From Escherichia phage BEK6, in the sequence record MN158208.1: DNA of 46,736 nucleotides, one strand, 5' to 3'. The notes beneath the pieces were generated by a model. That model was not told where the DNA came from, searched no databases, and saw only the letters and a program-made list of their open reading frames with translations. Below, one piece after another: positions 2,291-46,410 of this stretch (position 1 is the first letter of the stretch; the number at the start of each line of letters is the position of its first letter). A program made the position numbers and the translations under genes.

Positions 2291-3559
2291 ATGGTCAAGA
2301 CAGACAGCTACGCCAATATCTTTCTAGGCGGCAGTGATGGTAGTGAGATTTACGGGAGCTTGCAGAACCAAGACCCTACAATTCTGGCTTCGATTTATGC
2401 GGATAATGCGCTGGTGCGTAGAATTATCGACACAATCCCAGAGACAGCGCTAGCGGCAGGATTCCACATTGATGGCATTGATGATGAACCTGCATTCTGG
2501 TCTCGATGGGATGATTTAGAAATGACGCGGAATATTAACGATGCCTGGTCATGGGCCAGATTGTTCGGCGGAGCTGCTATTGTAGCTATCGTTAAGGACA
2601 ATAGGGCGCTAACAAGTCCAGTCAGAGAAGGTGCTGAGCTTGAAACCGTTCGCGTTTACGACCGTACGCAGGTAAAAGTACAAACTCGCGAGGAGAACCC
2701 ACGCAACGCACGCTTTGGTAAGCCGTTAACCTATCGCATCACCACAAATGAGAGCGATATGTTCTACGATGTGCATTACAGCCGCATTCACATTATTGAC
2801 GGAGAGCGAATCCCTAACGTAATGCGTCGACAGAATGATGGCTGGGGCCGCAGCGTTCTCTCTAGTGATATTCTTGACTCAATCAAGGATTACACCAACT
2901 GCGAACGACTGGCCACCCAACTGCTGAAGCGAAAGCAGCAAGCGGTGTGGAAAGCGAAAGGACTGGCTGAGTTGTGTGATGATAGCGAAGGATTCGGCGC
3001 GGCTCGATTACGACTTGCGCAGGTTGACAACAATAGCGGCGTTGGCCAGGCAATTGGCATTGATGCGGAATCTGAAGAATATAGCGTTCTGAACTCTGAT
3101 ATTGGCGGGATTGATGCGTTCCTGGATAAGAAGTTTGACAGAATCGTCGCACTGAGCGGCATTCATGAAATCATCCTGAAGAACAAGAACGTTGGCGGCG
3201 TATCCTCAAGCCAGAATACAGCGATGGAGACATTCCACAAGCTAATTGACCGCAAGCGTAACTCTGAACTGCTTCCTGTTCTTGAGTTCCTAATCCCGTT
3301 CATTGTTAACGTTGACGAATGGTCAGTTGAGTTTTATCCCCTAGCGCAGGAATCAAGTAAGGATAAAGCTGAGATTTTGCAGAAGAACGTAAGCAGCATC
3401 GCGGCGCTAGTTGCATCTGGCGTTATGGATATTGATGAGGCGAGAGATACATTGCGTGCAGTCGCTCCAGAGGTTAAGATTAGTGATGGTTCAGTAGAGA
3501 CAGAGGTGACGATTAGTGAAACCAGTAGCGACCAGCTGGAAGTACCCGCAGACAATTGA
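2291..3559 (+). CDS. portal protein
   Basis: ~420-aa ORF immediately after terminase; GGAGAAAAAC-ATG start preceded by hairpin plus T-run; assigned by position and size. Confidence 0.7.
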   Translation: MVKTDSYANIFLGGSDGSEIYGSLQNQDPTILASIYADNALVRRIIDTIPETALAAGFHIDGIDDEPAFWSRWDDLEMTRNINDAWSWARLFGGAAIVAIVKDNRALTSPVREGAELETVRVYDRTQVKVQTREENPRNARFGKPLTYRITTNESDMFYDVHYSRIHIIDGERIPNVMRRQNDGWGRSVLSSDILDSIKDYTNCERLATQLLKRKQQAVWKAKGLAELCDDSEGFGAARLRLAQVDNNSGVGQAIGIDAESEEYSVLNSDIGGIDAFLDKKFDRIVALSGIHEIILKNKNVGGVSSSQNTAMETFHKLIDRKRNSELLPVLEFLIPFIVNVDEWSVEFYPLAQESSKDKAEILQKNVSSIAALVASGVMDIDEARDTLRAVAPEVKISDGSVETEVTISETSSDQLEVPADN

Positions 3560-4256: not shown

Positions 4257-5342
4257 ATGAGTAAAATCCGCTATGACAGCGCAAAGTTTAAAGCAACAAT
4301 CGACGAGAATGGATTCTTAGTCGACACGCCAGTAGTCGCACGCATCGGTGTGCAGGTCTACTACACCGAGGATGGTCGCACCGTTCGAGAGTTTCGCCCA
4401 GCAGAGGAGGTTTTCAAGGATGAATCACTCTCCAGCTACCAGGGTAAGCCAATGACTCTGGAACATGTTTTCGTTAACTCAGAGAACGCTAAAGAGGTGG
4501 TGGTAGGTTCCGTTACTGGCAAAGCTGAGCCATTGGGTAGCTCAGTGGTTGCTCCGATTGTTGTTTACGATAACACAGCCATTCAGGAAGCTATGGCAGG
4601 TAACGCCAAGGAGTTATCCGTTGGTTACTCTGCAATTCTTGACGAAACCCCTGGCTGGGGTGACCCCATTACTGGTGAGTACGTACTTAAATCTGATGGT
4701 GATCAATTCGATGCGCCAGAGGGTTGGCAGGAGTTCGACGCAATTCAGCGTGACATTAAAGTGAACCATATCGCAATGGTATATCGAGGTAGAGCAGGCA
4801 TTGCCAAATTGAATATGGACGGTGAGCAGGAAAACCCGTATACTACTGACGTTGATATCAATAAAGAGGATAAACAGGAAATGATTAAAATTAAACTCGA
4901 CGGCGCGCAGGAATTCGAAGTCGCCCCAGAAATCGCTTATCACATCGAAGCACTGAACGCAAAGGCTGACACCGTAATTGCTGAGCGCGATGCACTGAAA
5001 GCTAAAGTTGATGCAATGCCTGCTGAAATCGAAGCTGCCGTGGCTAAAGCGAAAGCTGACGCTGATGCCCTTGCCGCCCTGGTTGCTGTTGCTGCTGAAG
5101 CTGGTGTTAAAGCTGATGGTCTGGATGCTAAAGGCATTAAAGTTGCTTACGTTAAAGAAGTCTCCGGCATTGATGTTTCCGAGAAGTCTGACGCGTACAT
5201 CGACGCAGCGTTCGACATTGCCAAAGAATCTGATAAAATGGCTGAAGTACGTAAAGCGACTACCGCTTCCGACAAATCTGACAGCGCCAATGAGCCTAAG
5301 AAATTAGACCCGCGTGCTCGTTTAGCTAAAATTAAGAAATAA
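4257..5342 (+). CDS. putative head scaffolding protein (possibly protease-scaffold)
   Basis: 361-aa ORF with AGGAG RBS; Ala/Lys/Glu-rich coiled-coil-like C-terminal half (AEIEAAVAKAKADADALAALVAVAAEAG); position between minor head and capsid genes. Confidence 0.5.
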   Translation: MSKIRYDSAKFKATIDENGFLVDTPVVARIGVQVYYTEDGRTVREFRPAEEVFKDESLSSYQGKPMTLEHVFVNSENAKEVVVGSVTGKAEPLGSSVVAPIVVYDNTAIQEAMAGNAKELSVGYSAILDETPGWGDPITGEYVLKSDGDQFDAPEGWQEFDAIQRDIKVNHIAMVYRGRAGIAKLNMDGEQENPYTTDVDINKEDKQEMIKIKLDGAQEFEVAPEIAYHIEALNAKADTVIAERDALKAKVDAMPAEIEAAVAKAKADADALAALVAVAAEAGVKADGLDAKGIKVAYVKEVSGIDVSEKSDAYIDAAFDIAKESDKMAEVRKATTASDKSDSANEPKKLDPRARLAKIKK

Positions 5343-22066: not shown

Positions 22067-22086
22067 TTTAGCAATTAGTGCTATTT
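22067..22086 (-). promoter_or_regulatory. gene-boundary palindrome copy (AAATAGCACTAATTGCTAAA on minus strand)
   Basis: Overlaps stop of the Rha-like gene; minus-strand TACTAT 22 bp downstream and CATCGAAACGAAAC leader before the lipoprotein gene. Confidence 0.5.
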
Positions 22087-22734
22087 CTTTTCCAGCAACA
22101 TCTTAATGTCAATGCCTAGCTCATTCTCAATTAATCCAGTCAGTGCATCGGCTTTTTCTTTAAGGGCAAAACACTGCGCTTCATACTTAAATCTTTCCTC
22201 CATCTCATTCGAGCGACTAGCCCAACACTGGCGAGCCTCACAAGCCAGCATATCGAGTTTTTCATCGGTATTCTTATCCATGAGTAAGATCTCATTTATT
22301 CTTTGCTCTGCAACAATGCGCTGGCTCAGGTGTGCATTTTGCGCATTAGCCACACCAAGCATCATTCGCGCCTCTTTTAACTCATCAATGCTTACCATCT
22401 GGCTGATCACTTCTGCTTGTTTTTTAACTAATGCCTCAAGCTCATGAAGTCGACGGATAACCCTGTGACGAAGAGCGACACTGTAGCCAGTGATTAGCGT
22501 TTCGGTGAGTTCCTTGTTGAGTAAAACCTCAGATGTATAGCCGCGACTGTCCGTAAGTACTTGATAATCATCATGACCCAAATCTGGGGCATCGTTATAA
22601 TGTAACAATTCATTGATCATTTCCTTTGTGTCGCGAACTACGTGATCATGACGCTTACCTGTCAATTCAGCAATTTCCTTCGTGCTCATCATGGTTTTTT
22701 GCTGTTCTTTGTACACTTTAATGTTCATTTTCAT
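22081..22734 (-). CDS. Rha-family regulatory (antirepressor-like) protein
   Basis: N-terminal motif STKEIAELTGKRHDHVVRD matches the Rha signature; first gene of the minus operon leaving the 22.7-23.3 kb control region. Confidence 0.5.
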   Translation of the reverse strand: MKMNIKVYKEQQKTMMSTKEIAELTGKRHDHVVRDTKEMINELLHYNDAPDLGHDDYQVLTDSRGYTSEVLLNKELTETLITGYSVALRHRVIRRLHELEALVKKQAEVISQMVSIDELKEARMMLGVANAQNAHLSQRIVAEQRINEILLMDKNTDEKLDMLACEARQCWASRSNEMEERFKYEAQCFALKEKADALTGLIENELGIDIKMLLEKK

Positions 22735-23255: not shown

Positions 23256-23284
23256 TTGACATCAATGCGGATTAGTTGTACTAT
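23256..23284 (+). promoter_or_regulatory. candidate sigma70-type promoter for the HNH gene / plus-strand early operon
   Basis: TTGACA (23256-23261), 17-bp spacer, TACTAT (23279-23284). Confidence 0.5.
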
Positions 23285-23314
23285 CAATTAAACAAAACAG
23301 CGGAGGGCTTATTT

Positions 23315-23806
23315 ATGGAATGGGGAGACATCTTTGAATACAGCAACGGAAAGCTTTACTGGAAGATAAGACCAGCAATGAGGATGAGGGTTGGCGACCT
23401 TGCGGGGACGGAATGTAAGGGTTACATTCAAGTTAACTGCAAAGCCAAATCGGGGGTAAATAAACTATATAGGGCGCATAGGATTGTATGGGAAATGCAT
23501 CATGGACCAATACCAGAAGGGGTAGTTATCGACCACATTAATGGGAATGGTCTAGACAACAGGATTGAGAACCTAAGAGTGGTTACGCAAGCAGATAATC
23601 AGAAGAACAAGAAGGTTGGTAAAAACAATGAAAGTGGTGTTCTTGGTGTTGCTTGGTATAAGCCTAGTTCGAAGTGGGTCGCTAGAATATCTAAGGATGG
23701 GAAGTGGTCACATATTGGGTATTTCGATAATTTCGAGGATGCCGTAAGAGCTAGGCGAGAAGCTGAATTAGAATTCAAATATCACGAAAATCACGGGAGA
23801 CGTTAA
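23315..23806 (+). CDS. HNH homing endonuclease with AP2-like DNA-binding domain
   Basis: HNH motif (YRAHRIVWEMHHGPIPEGVVIDHINGNGLDNRIENLR) followed by GVLGVAWYKPSSKWVARI...GYFDNFEDAVRARREAE; GGAGGG RBS, TTGACA-17-TACTAT promoter upstream. Confidence 0.7.
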   Translation: MEWGDIFEYSNGKLYWKIRPAMRMRVGDLAGTECKGYIQVNCKAKSGVNKLYRAHRIVWEMHHGPIPEGVVIDHINGNGLDNRIENLRVVTQADNQKNKKVGKNNESGVLGVAWYKPSSKWVARISKDGKWSHIGYFDNFEDAVRARREAELEFKYHENHGRR

Positions 23807-23807
23807 A

Positions 23808-24002
23808 ATGACCTACTACATTATCAAAGAGAAAAACAACGCACTATTCGGCGACTGCTACTTTGGTGGCCCTGCCGGATACACAACGAATAAGAACGAG
23901 GCAGACCGATTCGAGACTAAAGAAGAAGCCAGAGATGTACTGACCGGTTACTTCACTGAGGAAGATTTGAAATCGTTTAAGATTGTTAAGGTTAAGGATT
24001 GA
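23808..24002 (+). CDS. hypothetical protein
   Basis: 64-aa ORF tightly packed after the HNH gene. Confidence 0.4.
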   Translation: MTYYIIKEKNNALFGDCYFGGPAGYTTNKNEADRFETKEEARDVLTGYFTEEDLKSFKIVKVKD

Positions 24003-24007
24003 TTGAG

Positions 24008-24226
24008 ATGAAAACATGTGAAGAGAATTTTATATCACTAAATGATTTTATTGGTGATGATTTTGACTATTCTGATGTAATTGTTACATGGACTGCTGGA
24101 GGAGACGTTTTTTCAGATATGCTGATTTATAGTACAGACTATAGCAACTACCATTGGGAAGAAGACGAAGAATACGAAGAGGCTAGACTTTATTATTCTG
24201 AAATCATTAACGTTAAGAGAGTTTAA
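24008..24226 (+). CDS. small highly acidic protein
   Basis: 72 aa, very Asp/Glu-rich (WEEDEEYEEARLYY); AAGGA RBS; sits upstream of the exonuclease/ERF/SSB genes. Confidence 0.4.
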   Translation: MKTCEENFISLNDFIGDDFDYSDVIVTWTAGGDVFSDMLIYSTDYSNYHWEEDEEYEEARLYYSEIINVKRV

Positions 24227-24230
24227 GAAA

Positions 24231-25196
24231 ATGACATTTACCGTATACACACGAGAAGAGTTAACCAACGATGCTTATCACTCAGAGACTGACCACATTT
24301 CCGGTAGCTCACTTGTCGAGATTATCCAGGGTTCGCCAGCTAAGTGGAAGTTTAAACAGCGCAACAATGATAGCAAGGCGCTCAAGTTTGGAACACTGAG
24401 TCACACGTACATCCTCGAAGGTGACATGTTTGATAAAGAATACCTTCGAGCTACAGACCTTGACGCGATTGAAGGATTAATTACAAGCCAGACCGGATTA
24501 TCTGCAGCGCTGAAAAAAGTTGGCGTAGCTGGCACGTCCGGGAAGAGCTATAGCGAACTCGTAGAGATGATGTATCGATCTGGTGAGGATTGGCCTGTTA
24601 AATGGCTAATTGAGCAGCAGGAGAGCGCTCAAGCGCTTGTGGATGGTAAGGAGCTAGTTAGTGCCGCTGACTACGATAAAGTTGTGGCTATGCGTGAGGT
24701 TCTTTGCAATATACCGGCATATAATGCAATCGTGAATAGTGAGACAGCGCAAAAAGAGCTATCAATCTTCGGTGAAATTCTCGAGGTTGGGGTTAAGATT
24801 CGAATTGACCACGTAGATGTTGTTGATGGCGTTGTTCGGATCACAGATTACAAAACTACCGCAGACGCTAGCCCAGAAGGCTTTGGCAAGTCAGCATTCT
24901 CGCACGGATACCTTGCAAAAATGGCGCTTCAGCGAGATCTTTTTGTGAAGGCATTCAACGAGAAGCGAAAGGTTGTTGTAGGATTGCTGGCACAAGAGAA
25001 AGTGGAGCCATACCTCCCCATGCTTTACACCTTGACGGATGAGCAGCTAAGAATCGGCCGATTGCAGTATCTTGAGGCTCTTGCCACATATAAGAAGTGC
25101 AAGGAGCTTGATATCTGGCCTGGCTACTCAAATGGCATTACAGAGCAAGAGCTATTGGTTCCTGATTGGGCATTAAAACAATACAAAGAAATCTAA
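24231..25196 (+). CDS. PD-(D/E)xK family exonuclease (recombination nuclease)
   Basis: RIDHVDVVDGVVRITDYKT core resembling the D...(D/E)xK nuclease motif; adjacent to ERF and SSB genes. Confidence 0.6.
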   Translation: MTFTVYTREELTNDAYHSETDHISGSSLVEIIQGSPAKWKFKQRNNDSKALKFGTLSHTYILEGDMFDKEYLRATDLDAIEGLITSQTGLSAALKKVGVAGTSGKSYSELVEMMYRSGEDWPVKWLIEQQESAQALVDGKELVSAADYDKVVAMREVLCNIPAYNAIVNSETAQKELSIFGEILEVGVKIRIDHVDVVDGVVRITDYKTTADASPEGFGKSAFSHGYLAKMALQRDLFVKAFNEKRKVVVGLLAQEKVEPYLPMLYTLTDEQLRIGRLQYLEALATYKKCKELDIWPGYSNGITEQELLVPDWALKQYKEI

Positions 25197-25214
25197 ATAG
25201 CACTAATTGCTAAA
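25195..25214 (+). promoter_or_regulatory. palindrome copy AAATAGCACTAATTGCTAAA in the ERF gene leader
   Basis: Overlaps exonuclease stop; followed directly by TACAAAAT, RBS and ATG 25236 (no -10-like hexamer). Confidence 0.45.
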
Positions 25215-25235
25215 TACAAAATTAAAAGGTGGTGT

Positions 25236-25919
25236 ATGATTACCCCATCAACGACGAACGAGGTTAATATGCAAATTTCAGAATCATGCAAATCAATTTT
25301 AAACGCGCTGCACACTGCCAAATCGCTATTTGCGAAGGCTGAAAAGTCTAAGCAGAACTCACACTTAAAGAACAAGTACGCTACCCTAGAAGACGTTTTG
25401 GCGGCCGTTGAGCCTGGTTTAGATGAGTGTGGGCTTGTTATGTTCCAGAGTGTACTTGATGATGAACAAACCAATCGCATGAAGGTTGAGACAAAACTGT
25501 TTCATGCTGAATCTGGAGAGTGGGTTAGCTTCTTGATGATCGTACCAATCAGTAAGAATGATGCACAAGGTTACGGCTCAGCTTTAACATACGCTCGACG
25601 TTACGGAATCACAGCGGCGTTAGGACTTAGCCAGGCAGATGATGATGGTAATCTCGCAGCGAAAGGTGTTAAGGACTTTAAGCGAGAGCTAGAGAAATGC
25701 AATACTCTTGATGAGCTTCGCAATGTCTGGAAGGAGGCTAAGCAGTCACTTGATGCGGCAGGATGGAAGGTTTTCGAACCCCACATCATAGAGCGAAAGG
25801 CAGAGATTGAAGCAAATGCAGCAACTGGCTTCAACCCAGCAGAACCAAAGAAAGTTGCAGAAAAAAGTAGTCCTGAAGAAAAGATTAAAGTAGAATCAAA
25901 ACAAATCGACACATTCTAA
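25236..25919 (+). CDS. ERF-family single-strand annealing protein
   Basis: Conserved ERF-like segments (KYATLEDV..., GSALTYARRYGITAALG); ATG 25269 is an alternative start. Confidence 0.65.
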   Translation: MITPSTTNEVNMQISESCKSILNALHTAKSLFAKAEKSKQNSHLKNKYATLEDVLAAVEPGLDECGLVMFQSVLDDEQTNRMKVETKLFHAESGEWVSFLMIVPISKNDAQGYGSALTYARRYGITAALGLSQADDDGNLAAKGVKDFKRELEKCNTLDELRNVWKEAKQSLDAAGWKVFEPHIIERKAEIEANAATGFNPAEPKKVAEKSSPEEKIKVESKQIDTF

Positions 25920-25960: not shown

Positions 25961-26365
25961 ATGCACATAATTACTGGTCAGATTCGCCGCGCTCCATTCA
26001 CCAAAGAAGGCGTAAACGCCAATGGTAACTGGAAAATGTTCGCAGTTGATTTGAGTGAGCGCTACAAAGATAAAGATGGTCAATCACAGTACACAAATTA
26101 TCGTGCCGTCTTCTTCGCTAAAGAATCTATGTTAGATTGGTACAATGATGCATTTCAAGAAGGTAAAGTTGTTAGTGTTAGCGCTGAAAGCTTGGCTGTA
26201 GATGTTAGGGATAAAGATGGTAAGACTTACGTAACCATTAACATGAATAATCCTCGGCTTGAGTTTAGTCAGCGAGGTGAGAGTGGAGGTCAACAACAAC
26301 AGCAACAGCGTCAACAGCCACAGCCACAGCAGCAACAGCAGTTCAATGACGACATTCCATTCTAA
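25961..26365 (+). CDS. ssb: single-stranded DNA-binding protein
   Basis: OB-fold-like N-terminal domain, Gly/Gln-rich linker and canonical acidic tail ...FNDDIPF. Confidence 0.8.
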   Translation: MHIITGQIRRAPFTKEGVNANGNWKMFAVDLSERYKDKDGQSQYTNYRAVFFAKESMLDWYNDAFQEGKVVSVSAESLAVDVRDKDGKTYVTINMNNPRLEFSQRGESGGQQQQQQRQQPQPQQQQQFNDDIPF

Positions 26366-26380
26366 TACTGAAACAAATAA

Positions 26381-26403
26381 GGAGCCTTGCGGCTCCTTTT
26401 TTT
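26381..26403. terminator. bidirectional terminator between SSB (+) and fiber-like (-) genes
   Basis: GGAGCC-ttgc-GGCTCC followed by TTTTTTT. Confidence 0.65.
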
Positions 26404-33545: not shown

Positions 33546-33607
33546 GATGATTTTAAAAGATGGAGTATAGTTACTCCATCGAAACTAAACTCAGAGAGAG
33601 AAACAAA

Positions 33608-33802
33608 ATGAATACCATATATACTGCTAAATTCTACGAGTCGCGTAAAACTGGTTACGAGTATGAATTAGTAATTACAGGTGACGGTTATTTTCTTGAT
33701 GATGGTGAGGGATACTCATTCGAAGTTAGCCCGACCTACAAAGATGATCTGGAAGTCGTTAAAAACGCATTCGGCGAAAAATTTGATGAGGTATCAGAAT
33801 AA
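33608..33802 (+). CDS. hypothetical protein
   Basis: 64-aa ORF downstream of palindrome/TATAGT/CATCGAAACTAAAC module. Confidence 0.4.
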   Translation: MNTIYTAKFYESRKTGYEYELVITGDGYFLDDGEGYSFEVSPTYKDDLEVVKNAFGEKFDEVSE

Positions 33803-34023
33803 TGGCAATTTTTACATTTGAGAATCAATGGGAAGTATTTAAGTTAATGGCGGTTCAGGAACTCAAGAAATCTGGATATAAAAAAAACCCGTGGGACTTA
33901 GCATTTTGCCTGGACATGAGTTTTGAGGAGGACTACCTGAACACTGATGTTGAAAAATGGCGCGACCGCATGGTTGCTGATATCGAAGAAATGAAAAAAG
34001 ATTGCCCGGAGGATTTTGAATAA
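33802..34023 (+). CDS. hypothetical acidic protein
   Basis: 73-aa ORF, TAATG overlap with the upstream gene. Confidence 0.4.
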   Translation: MAIFTFENQWEVFKLMAVQELKKSGYKKNPWDLAFCLDMSFEEDYLNTDVEKWRDRMVADIEEMKKDCPEDFE

Positions 34024-41290: not shown

Positions 41291-41470
41291 TCAAATAAAT
41301 GGTAGGCATTCGGCGCATCCAAGTCCATCACAGCACAGGAATTCATCCTCTGACTGGAATTGCTTAGCCAAGTCGATGTCCAGCTTTCCGCGCAACACAA
41401 GTTCTGTGTAATCTTCATTAAGCCCAATCAGTGCGCATTCGTGACGTAATTCATCTTTATCAATCTTCAT
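41291..41470 (-). CDS. hypothetical Cys-rich small protein
   Basis: 59-aa ORF (ends ...CCDGLGCAECLPFI) with GGGGAG RBS, preceded by palindrome/TATAGT/CTCATCAACAACGG module; below the track cutoff. Confidence 0.35.
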   Translation of the reverse strand: MKIDKDELRHECALIGLNEDYTELVLRGKLDIDLAKQFQSEDEFLCCDGLGCAECLPFI

Positions 41471-45020: not shown

Positions 45021-45182
45021 ATGATTAAGGTTGTCTATGTAGGTGAGAGTGATTATGTGGCGCTAATTCAGCGTGGTGATGTGTTTTTCGCAGAGATGAG
45101 TGATGATGGTAGTTGCTACATCGTAAAGAACAAGAATGGCGAAGATATCTACCTTTCAGAAGATGATGTTATAATTTACTAA
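45021..45182 (+). CDS. hypothetical small protein
   Basis: 53-aa ORF with AAGGTGA RBS; first of three overlapping small ORFs. Confidence 0.3.
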   Translation: MIKVVYVGESDYVALIQRGDVFFAEMSDDGSCYIVKNKNGEDIYLSEDDVIIY

Positions 45183-46223: not shown

Positions 46224-46301
46224 GCTCTGTTAGCTCAATTGGATAGCAGCAACGACCTTCTAAGTCGTAGGTTACTGGTTCGAATCCAGTGCGGAGCGCC
46301 A
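46224..46301 (+). tRNA. tRNA-Arg (anticodon UCU), with encoded 3' CCA
   Basis: Hand-folded cloverleaf: acceptor GCTCTGT/GCGGAGC, anticodon stem ACGAC/GTCGT with loop CTTCTAA (anticodon TCT), T-arm ACTGG-TTCGAAT-CCAGT, discriminator G then CCA; resembles enterobacterial argU-type tRNA. Confidence 0.75.
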
Positions 46302-46308
46302 AATCAAA

Positions 46309-46410
46309 CGTCGCGTTGCTAATGCTGGCCAAAGGGTGGAGCTTATACCTCCATAAAGCAATCTCCAGATAAGAGATGTAACGCAGGTTCGATTCCTGCC
46401 GCGACGACCA
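46309..46410 (+). ncRNA. tRNA-like element (non-canonical length; possibly a class II tRNA or degenerate tRNA)
   Basis: Perfect 7-bp acceptor pairing CGTCGCG/CGCGACG, canonical T-arm GCAGG-TTCGATT-CCTGC, discriminator A and CCA, D-loop-like GGCCAAAGGG, but ~99 nt with two candidate anticodon hairpins. Confidence 0.3.

Follow-up and report, generated by a model that had tools for sequence, protein, structure and literature searches.

The small, acidic gene ORF72 of Escherichia phage BEK6 is an accessory cassette of Rtp-like (T1-like) coliphages. It has inserted precisely where a conserved 64-aa ORF meets the gene of a RecE-like exonuclease. It is a real gene, and based on database comparisons, its product is an orphan family. 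By analogy with acidic proteins of model phages, we tentatively read this product as a decoy of a host DNA nuclease. The whole stretch of DNA that was analyzed (46,736 nt; hereafter, the window) comes from a T1-like Escherichia siphophage (Drexlerviridae, Braunvirinae, Rtp group), and the recombination operon and its neighbors comprise the following features (SD, Shine-Dalgarno):

23276–23806, plus strand: HNH-AP2 homing-type endonuclease gene, upstream of ORF72 and in the same direction
23808–24002, plus strand: 64-aa ORF (rtp46-like, phrog_5247; PHROG E = 6.5e-25), left border of the slot
23994–23998, plus strand: AAGGA SD motif for ORF72, 9 nt before its ATG and inside the 3' end of the 64-aa ORF
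24008–24226, plus strand: ORF72, encoding an acidic, aromatic-rich orphan protein of 72 aa (sequence, composition, 19 variants, dN/dS <1)
24215–24221, plus strand: AAGAGAG SD-like motif, within the terminal codons of ORF72, 9 nt upstream of the exonuclease ATG
24231–25196, plus strand: RecE-like PD-(D/E)XK exonuclease gene (Pfam DUF3799, E = 1.5e-21; PHROG ‘exonuclease VIII’, E = 4.7e-97), right border of the slot
25236–25919, plus strand: gene of an ERF-family single-strand annealing protein (Pfam E = 8.4e-28; also matched in PHROG)
25961–26365, plus strand: phage SSB gene, with a host-like acidic tip, ...FNDDIPF, in the product (phrog_44, E = 3.1e-29)
26379–26398, no strand assigned: terminator-like bidirectional GC hairpin after the SSB gene, closing the operon (consensus match only)

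The preliminary description had located ORF72 just upstream of an exonuclease/ERF/SSB cluster, and this location is borne out by Pfam/PHROG matches for all three neighbors. The gene runs from an ATG at 24008 to a TAA at 24224–24226 (72 codons), and 4 nt separate its stop codon from the ATG of the exonuclease gene. Its translation, MKTCEENFISLNDFIGDDFDYSDVIVTWTAGGDVFSDMLIYSTDYSNYHWEEDEEYEEARLYYSEIINVKRV, is 100% identical to the BEK6 hypothetical protein QGH76877.1. The ORF-finder listing gives a second in-frame start (TTG at 23999); the ATG at 24008, with AAGGA 9 nt upstream, is the start kept in all relatives. A promoter scan of the window returned matches that were no more numerous than in shuffled sequence, and the early expression of ORF72, read only from its position in the operon, is putative.

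Between the tail-fiber region and the recombination operon, the HNH-AP2 gene is accompanied by a Rha/anti-repressor-like gene (22081–22734, minus strand), and neither of the two is found at this place in phage vB_EcoS_FP. A sigma-70-like site with a score of 10/12 (23256–23284) suggests that the HNH gene truly begins with the ATG at 23315 and not with the TTG at 23276. The idea that ORF72 is cargo of the adjacent HNH endonuclease was rejected, given that the HNH gene is not beside ORF72 in vB_EcoS_FP or in contigs L003 and L004. In another part of the window, a tRNA-like Rfam match (46309–46407; 99 nt, 39.3 bits), which was not called by ARAGORN, directly follows tRNA-Arg(tct) (46224–46301) and is possibly a tRNA that is degenerate, contains an intron, or has a long arm.

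Homologs of ORF72 were searched among 5.8 billion proteins, once by sequence and once by profile, and both searches returned only the same five clusters (90% identity). These clusters contain 19 distinct ORF72 sequences from several dozen contigs, most of which are phage genomes of 44–47 kb. Every one of the 19 variants is 72 aa long, with no stop codon or frameshift, and their alignment has 39 invariant columns, including ten aromatic and eight acidic residues; the aromatics are conserved better than the acidics. Pairwise dN/dS values range from 0.21 to 0.76 (0.21–0.50 in five of six pairs, 0.76 in the other), which is below 1 but above the values for the neighboring genes (0.07–0.15), showing that purifying selection acts on ORF72, though less strongly than on the genes beside it. 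All variants remain acidic (pI 4.05–4.68, net charge −15 to −7); in the two that have diverged furthest (−7 and −9), about half of the charge is lost. In sequences that are otherwise near-identical, charge-changing substitutions recur at residues 16 (G/R/C), 38 (M/R/K), 57 (E/K), and 71 (R/S/G), and these positions may mark an evolving interaction surface.

In the GenBank phage set, ORF72 occurs in a single one of 50,697 records (vB_EcoS_FP). Searches of NCBIfam and of plasmids (tblastn) gave only noise, a peptide-pattern scan of IMG/VR detected no relative of ORF72, and the profile search of PDB sequences found none either (best E = 0.3). The best Pfam match was DUF7663 (E = 0.065). PHROG 8166, a family with no annotated function, was matched weakly but repeatably (E ~0.01) by four of the five ORF72 family members. 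An antisense ORF (24113–24268) and a non-coding RNA were considered as alternative products of the locus and rejected; conservation tracks the plus-strand reading frame, and Rfam contains no RNA family that overlaps ORF72. In the literature, we found no mention of BEK6 and nothing informative on T1-like phages and RecBCD.

To place the gene in its genomic setting, five ORF72 contexts were compared: the window, vB_EcoS_FP, and three metagenomic or run-assembly contigs (L003, L004, and L031). In all five, ORF72 lies between the 64-aa ORF and the exonuclease gene. Carriage is sporadic, however, with ORF72 present in only one of the 119 phage records that contain the 64-aa ORF. The junction exists in four alternative states:

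Empty (stop codon, 3 nt, exonuclease ATG): Rtp, IME253, CEB_EC3a, IME542, RobRod40, JeanPiccard, BEK3, AKS96, and Opt-79
Unrelated 65-aa ORF (phrog_1222): Veterinaerplatzvirus, ACG-M12, and locus L010
HNH endonuclease gene: DTL
ORF72: the window, vB_EcoS_FP, L003, L004, and L031

These states amount to a clean natural experiment on accessory-gene function in otherwise near-isogenic phages. The alternative occupant of 65 aa is not acidic (pI 6.2–8.7). It was found in 229 phage records (as at 3202–3399 of locus L002), also including Stx-converting lambdoid phages, where it lies in the ea/early-left accessory region, and Dhillonvirus, where it sits between the genes of a DNA polymerase and a VRR-NUC nuclease. 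Judged from these sequence contexts, the 65-aa ORF is a mobile small gene that is repeatedly placed beside nuclease or replication genes. The 64-aa ORF on the left border is conserved in Braunvirinae and Rogunavirinae and is always immediately followed by the RecE-like exonuclease gene or the slot. Its product is mildly acidic and aromatic-rich (dN/dS 0.07–0.15) and is annotated in BEK3 as the C-terminal portion of a 138-aa protein (phrog_35664). It is perhaps the 64-aa product that is the exonuclease's true conserved partner.

Comparisons between diverged backgrounds revealed that the cassette and its flanks have different histories. The DNA identity of ORF72 (85–89%) is higher than that of the 64-aa ORF (79–84%) and of the exonuclease gene (66–88%; only 66–76% between the window and L003, L004, or L031), and its dS (0.16–0.37) is well below that of the flanks (0.9–2.6). 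Recent lateral spread is therefore the simplest reading, and these values suggest that the ORF72 cassette was transferred between lineages. Exonuclease alleles that are 93–95% identical in amino acid sequence to that of the window (loci L002, L005, and L006) are found without ORF72, whereas alleles that are only 78% identical are found with it; on these alignments, ORF72 is tied to no exonuclease allele. We also considered ORF72 as a dedicated exonuclease subunit and rejected this candidate, which is not found beside near-identical exonuclease alleles.

The sequence of the junction indicates how such a cassette could be accommodated. The last codons of the 64-aa ORF (GTTAAGGTTAAGGA...) hold the SD motif for whichever gene comes next, and in the relatives with an empty slot, the same AAGGA motif serves the exonuclease ATG, which lies 3 nt past the stop codon. 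The slot occupants, ORF72 and the 65-aa ORF, share a similar GTTAAG-type ‘VK’ tail (junctions of the window, L002, L005, and L020), which in ORF72 reads ...AACGTTAAGAGAGTTTAA. The AAGAGAG motif in this tail would act as the SD for the exonuclease. In this way, the tail of the occupant brings an SD-like motif back to a position 9 nt upstream of the exonuclease ATG, and the expression of ORF72 and the exonuclease is therefore probably coupled. The junction appears to behave as a plug-in site that preserves translational coupling.

A second variable slot lies where the exonuclease gene adjoins that of ERF; in the window, it is empty (25197–25235). It is occupied by a Dam-type methyltransferase gene in L003 (7158–7655) and JeanPiccard, by an HNH gene in Opt-79, by a 59-aa ORF in BEK3, and by the gene of a 149-aa protein (phrog_7116) in vB_EcoS_FP. 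The corresponding intervals in L021, L023, and L001 are 2966–3430, 2945–3400, and 4487–4936, respectively.

The preliminary description had characterized the product of ORF72 as extremely acidic and dominated by Asp/Glu and aromatic residues, and both statements held. The protein contains nine Asp and nine Glu (25% of residues) against two Lys and two Arg, as well as 13 aromatic residues (18%), and the two motifs quoted in support of its composition are found in the translation. The calculation of pI and net charge, which had been proposed as a check, gave values of 4.05 and −14.4 at pH 7, respectively. With −0.20 charges per residue, ORF72 is the most acidic of the 74 non-overlapping ORFs in the window (runner-up: −0.14), and a net charge this negative did not arise once in 20,000 nucleotide shuffles of the gene. 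The G + C content of ORF72 (32%) is lower than that of the window (44%), at least partly because Asp, Glu, Tyr, Asn, Ile, and Phe have AT-rich codons. Four other small ORFs of the window are markedly acidic (45021–45182, plus strand; 41291–41470, minus strand; 33560–33802, plus strand; 33802–34023, plus strand), with pI values of 4.05–4.5 and −0.11 to −0.14 charges per residue. They might be considered as candidate host-takeover or counter-defense proteins.

By its charge and hydropathy, ORF72 falls on the ‘disordered’ side, but this result does not discriminate, because gp5.9, Ocr, Arf, and Gam fall there as well. The structure prediction that had been proposed in the preliminary description yielded AlphaFold2 models, both of which were too low in confidence for an analysis of surface carboxylates as a mimic of the DNA phosphate backbone on a rigid fold (pLDDT 45.6 with the 5-sequence alignment and 50.5 with the single sequence) and too poor to interpret. 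The two models agree loosely on a putative helix, a beta-hairpin (residues 24–40), a second helix, and a C-terminal strand. Using the better model, Foldseek found nothing significant in the PDB (best E = 1.1, paratox Prx, TM 0.23) and only the vB_EcoS_FP ortholog in BFVD.

The same description had cautiously suggested a DNA mimic or an inhibitor of host nucleases or restriction systems. This suggestion is in line with the composition, the position, and the sporadic, mobile distribution of ORF72, but no homology to any known mimic was found. High acidity and small size are hallmarks of DNA mimicry, and P22 Arf is perhaps a mimic (Wilkinson et al. 2022, PMC9836394). The composition criteria for DNA mimics are a length of <200 aa and at least 10 Asp/Glu (Wang et al., PMC3902945), and ORF72, with 72 aa, 18 Asp/Glu, and a pI of 4.05, falls within them. 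Membership of ORF72 in the class of DNA mimics is thus at the level of composition only. With regard to position, the anti-RecBCD genes of recombination modules provide a second criterion: ORF72 lies immediately upstream of the exonuclease gene, in the same slot in five of five contexts. In three model phages, judging from the positions of the genes for gp5.9, Arf, and Gam, the exonuclease/annealase operon is headed by a small acidic protein that is a RecBCD antagonist or a recombination helper. Acidity by itself is a weak predictor of function.

From these analogies, we tentatively favor the explanation that ORF72 might inhibit a host DNA nuclease by acting as a decoy, with RecBCD as the first candidate target and restriction or BREX as the second. 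Translation of ORF72 would be chained to that of the exonuclease, ERF, and SSB, and the product would serve as a stoichiometric decoy in which carboxylates, and possibly aromatic side chains, replace the phosphates and bases of DNA. A host DNA-processing nuclease would thereby have its DNA-binding site blocked. The leading target would be RecBCD, by analogy with T7 gp5.9 and lambda Gam; with RecBCD inhibited, the linear ends of the phage DNA would be protected, and recombination would fall to the exonuclease, ERF, and SSB of the phage itself. A restriction or BREX-type system, as with Ocr, would come second. A more specific version, in which ORF72 is the founding member of a nucleic-acid mimic family with a new and unrelated fold, is unlikely; here, the conserved aromatics and carboxylates would imitate DNA, possibly in single-stranded or end-structured form, and the gene would be a self-contained cassette at the coupling junction and one of the ‘unknown factors’ of T1-like phages (see below).

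Counter-defense genes are usually sporadic, laterally moving accessory cassettes in variable slots. Being sporadic, mobile, fast-evolving, and dispensable, ORF72 fits a counter-defense gene of host-dependent value. Anti-defense proteins that mimic DNA are reportedly enriched among the triggers of other defense systems (EVADES preprint), and such triggering would select against universal carriage, which would explain the patchy distribution. Members of the Drexlerviridae range from highly sensitive to resistant to restriction for ‘unknown factors’ (BASEL, PMC8594841). Several observations speak against a decoy. The tentative helix/beta-hairpin/helix/strand topology of the low-confidence models is unlike the all-helical dimers of gp5.9 and Gam, the two most diverged variants carry only about half of the net charge, and aromatics are better conserved than acidics. 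Moreover, ORF72 is missing from the majority of sister phages that have this recombination module and is therefore not needed for it; the phages without ORF72 must deal with RecBCD otherwise.

That ORF72 is instead a specific protein–protein inhibitor or modulator, acting without nucleic-acid mimicry, is a serious possibility, although short of a probable one. This is a broad class, which includes proteins that would block or decoy a non-nuclease defense sensor, a protease, or a host metabolic protein, and in which the acidity would be incidental or serve solubility. The orphan status of the family, the hypervariable slot with other occupants that are not acidic (the 65-aa ORF, as above), and the excess of conserved aromatics over conserved acidics are all consistent with this class, as are the recurrent charge changes at residues 16, 38, 57, and 71, which resemble an evolving interface, and the share of DNA mimics among the anti-defense proteins in the EVADES preprint (only 11 of 268). 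Left unexplained, however, are the extreme charge, which no nucleotide shuffle reached, and the fact that ORF72 heads a recombination operon, an arrangement with counterparts in three model phages. At the other extreme, a decaying or function-less filler ORF, retained only for the ribosome-binding signal of the exonuclease at its 3' end, might account for the high dN/dS of one pair (up to 0.76), the tiny family, and the existence of empty slots, but it is highly improbable: the reading frame is exactly 72 codons without stop or frameshift in 19 of 19 variants with 39 invariant columns, five of six pairwise dN/dS values are 0.21–0.50, and the cassette has spread between diverged backgrounds.

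Two further explanations involve the phage recombination proteins themselves. As an accessory factor of the Arf type, ORF72 would not inhibit a host enzyme; its binding partner would be the RecE-like exonuclease, ERF, or SSB, whose activity or loading it would tune. The translational chaining of ORF72 to the exonuclease and the precedent of P22 Arf (47 aa, pI 4.05), whose gene overlaps erf and which is annotated as stimulating Erf recombination, point in this direction. Such a role is nevertheless unlikely in view of the lack of co-variation with exonuclease alleles (93–95% identical without ORF72, 78% identical with it), the movement of ORF72 independently of its flanks, and the lack of similarity to Arf. 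RecBCD is guarded by retron Ec48 and by P2 Old. By analogy, ORF72 could be a counter-measure against defenses that sense the recombination module (Gabija, via Exo–Erf end-binding complexes) or the inhibition of RecBCD (retron Ec48 and P2 Old), which we regard as distinctly improbable. In a Pseudomonas phage, Exo and Erf reportedly license Gabija targeting (PMC12407980), and ORF72 is probably co-expressed with an exonuclease–ERF pair, but the analogy comes from one preprint and another host, and ORF72 has no similarity to known Gabija inhibitors.

To our knowledge, T1-like phages have no known RecBCD or restriction inhibitor. If ORF72 were a decoy of a host nuclease, it would be the first candidate for such an inhibitor in these phages, and a new sequence and fold family would join the short list of natural DNA mimics, of which the EVADES preprint lists only 11 as anti-defense proteins. 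It would also help to explain why closely related Drexlerviridae differ in their sensitivity to immunity, a question that was left open by BASEL (PMC8594841). Under the decoy model, ORF72 would represent a known strategy in a variant that is new in both sequence and fold; without mimicry, it would be an accessory gene of an ordinary, orphan kind. Phage specialists would not be surprised by an accessory protein that is small and acidic. With its clean slot and natural alternative states, its lateral spread, and the absence of a known inhibitor from T1-like phages, ORF72 is a tractable candidate rather than a discovery.

To compare ORF72 with known acidic phage proteins, pI and charge per residue were computed for all of them with one script:

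ORF72: pI 4.05, −0.20 charges per residue
T7 gp5.9: pI 4.08, −0.16 charges per residue
T7 Ocr: pI 4.05, −0.24 charges per residue
P22 Arf: pI 4.05, −0.24 charges per residue
Lambda Gam: pI 5.53, −0.06 charges per residue

In pI, charge density, and Asp + Glu fraction, ORF72 matches gp5.9, Ocr, and Arf. Comparisons using blastp and hhalign revealed no relationship between ORF72 and gp5.9, Arf, Ocr, Gam, Abc1/2, or Ral. The likeness to T7 gp5.9 lies in small size (52 aa in gp5.9, 72 aa in ORF72), an identical proportion of Asp and Glu (25% in both), and the fact that neither gene is essential. T7 gene 5.9 overlaps the start of gene 6, which encodes a 5'–3' exonuclease, and ORF72 is likewise immediately upstream of an exonuclease gene, to which it is probably coupled. 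Unlike a member of the gp5.9 family, ORF72 has no detectable homology to this protein (blastp E = 16; hhalign probability 0.2%), and its aromatic content is threefold higher (18% vs. 6%). In addition, gp5.9 is a parallel coiled-coil dimer (PMC9836394), whereas the low-confidence models of ORF72 contain a beta-hairpin. P22 Arf is similarly tiny (47 aa), acidic, and encoded directly upstream of a recombination gene. In P22, however, arf overlaps erf, with abc1 and abc2 adjoining, whereas ORF72 precedes the exonuclease gene and not that of ERF, and homology between ORF72 and Arf was not detected (hhalign probability 0.2%).

With regard to the uracil-DNA glycosylase inhibitors, Ugi, p56, and SAUGI are small, acidic DNA mimics with mixed alpha/beta structure (PMC3902945). 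They were not among the profile matches of ORF72 to all PDB sequences at E values up to 10. We know of no reason to expect that T1-like phages need to inhibit Ung.

In lambda, gam is the first gene of gam-bet-exo, and ORF72 is correspondingly ahead of the exonuclease, ERF, and SSB genes. Gam is an acidic, dimeric DNA mimic that inhibits RecBCD (PMC5218532, PMC9836394). Unlike ORF72, it is 138 aa long and much less charged, and homology to Gam was not detected in ORF72 (no Pfam Gam match at E up to 0.1; hhalign probability 0.03%). T7 Ocr (gp0.3), a DNA mimic directed against type I restriction and BREX, has the same pI as ORF72 and a similar charge density. The two proteins share an acidic-Tyr patch of eight residues (EEDEEYEE in ORF72, EEVEEYEE in Ocr), which is of low complexity (hhalign probability 1%); homology over the Ocr fold was not detected in ORF72, in which only this patch aligns and which has no Pfam match. 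Unlike ORF72, Ocr is 117 aa long, and its gene is the first into the cell and unlinked to recombination genes. ORF72 belongs to none of these families, yet by analogy, it may work like gp5.9, Gam, Ocr, or Arf.
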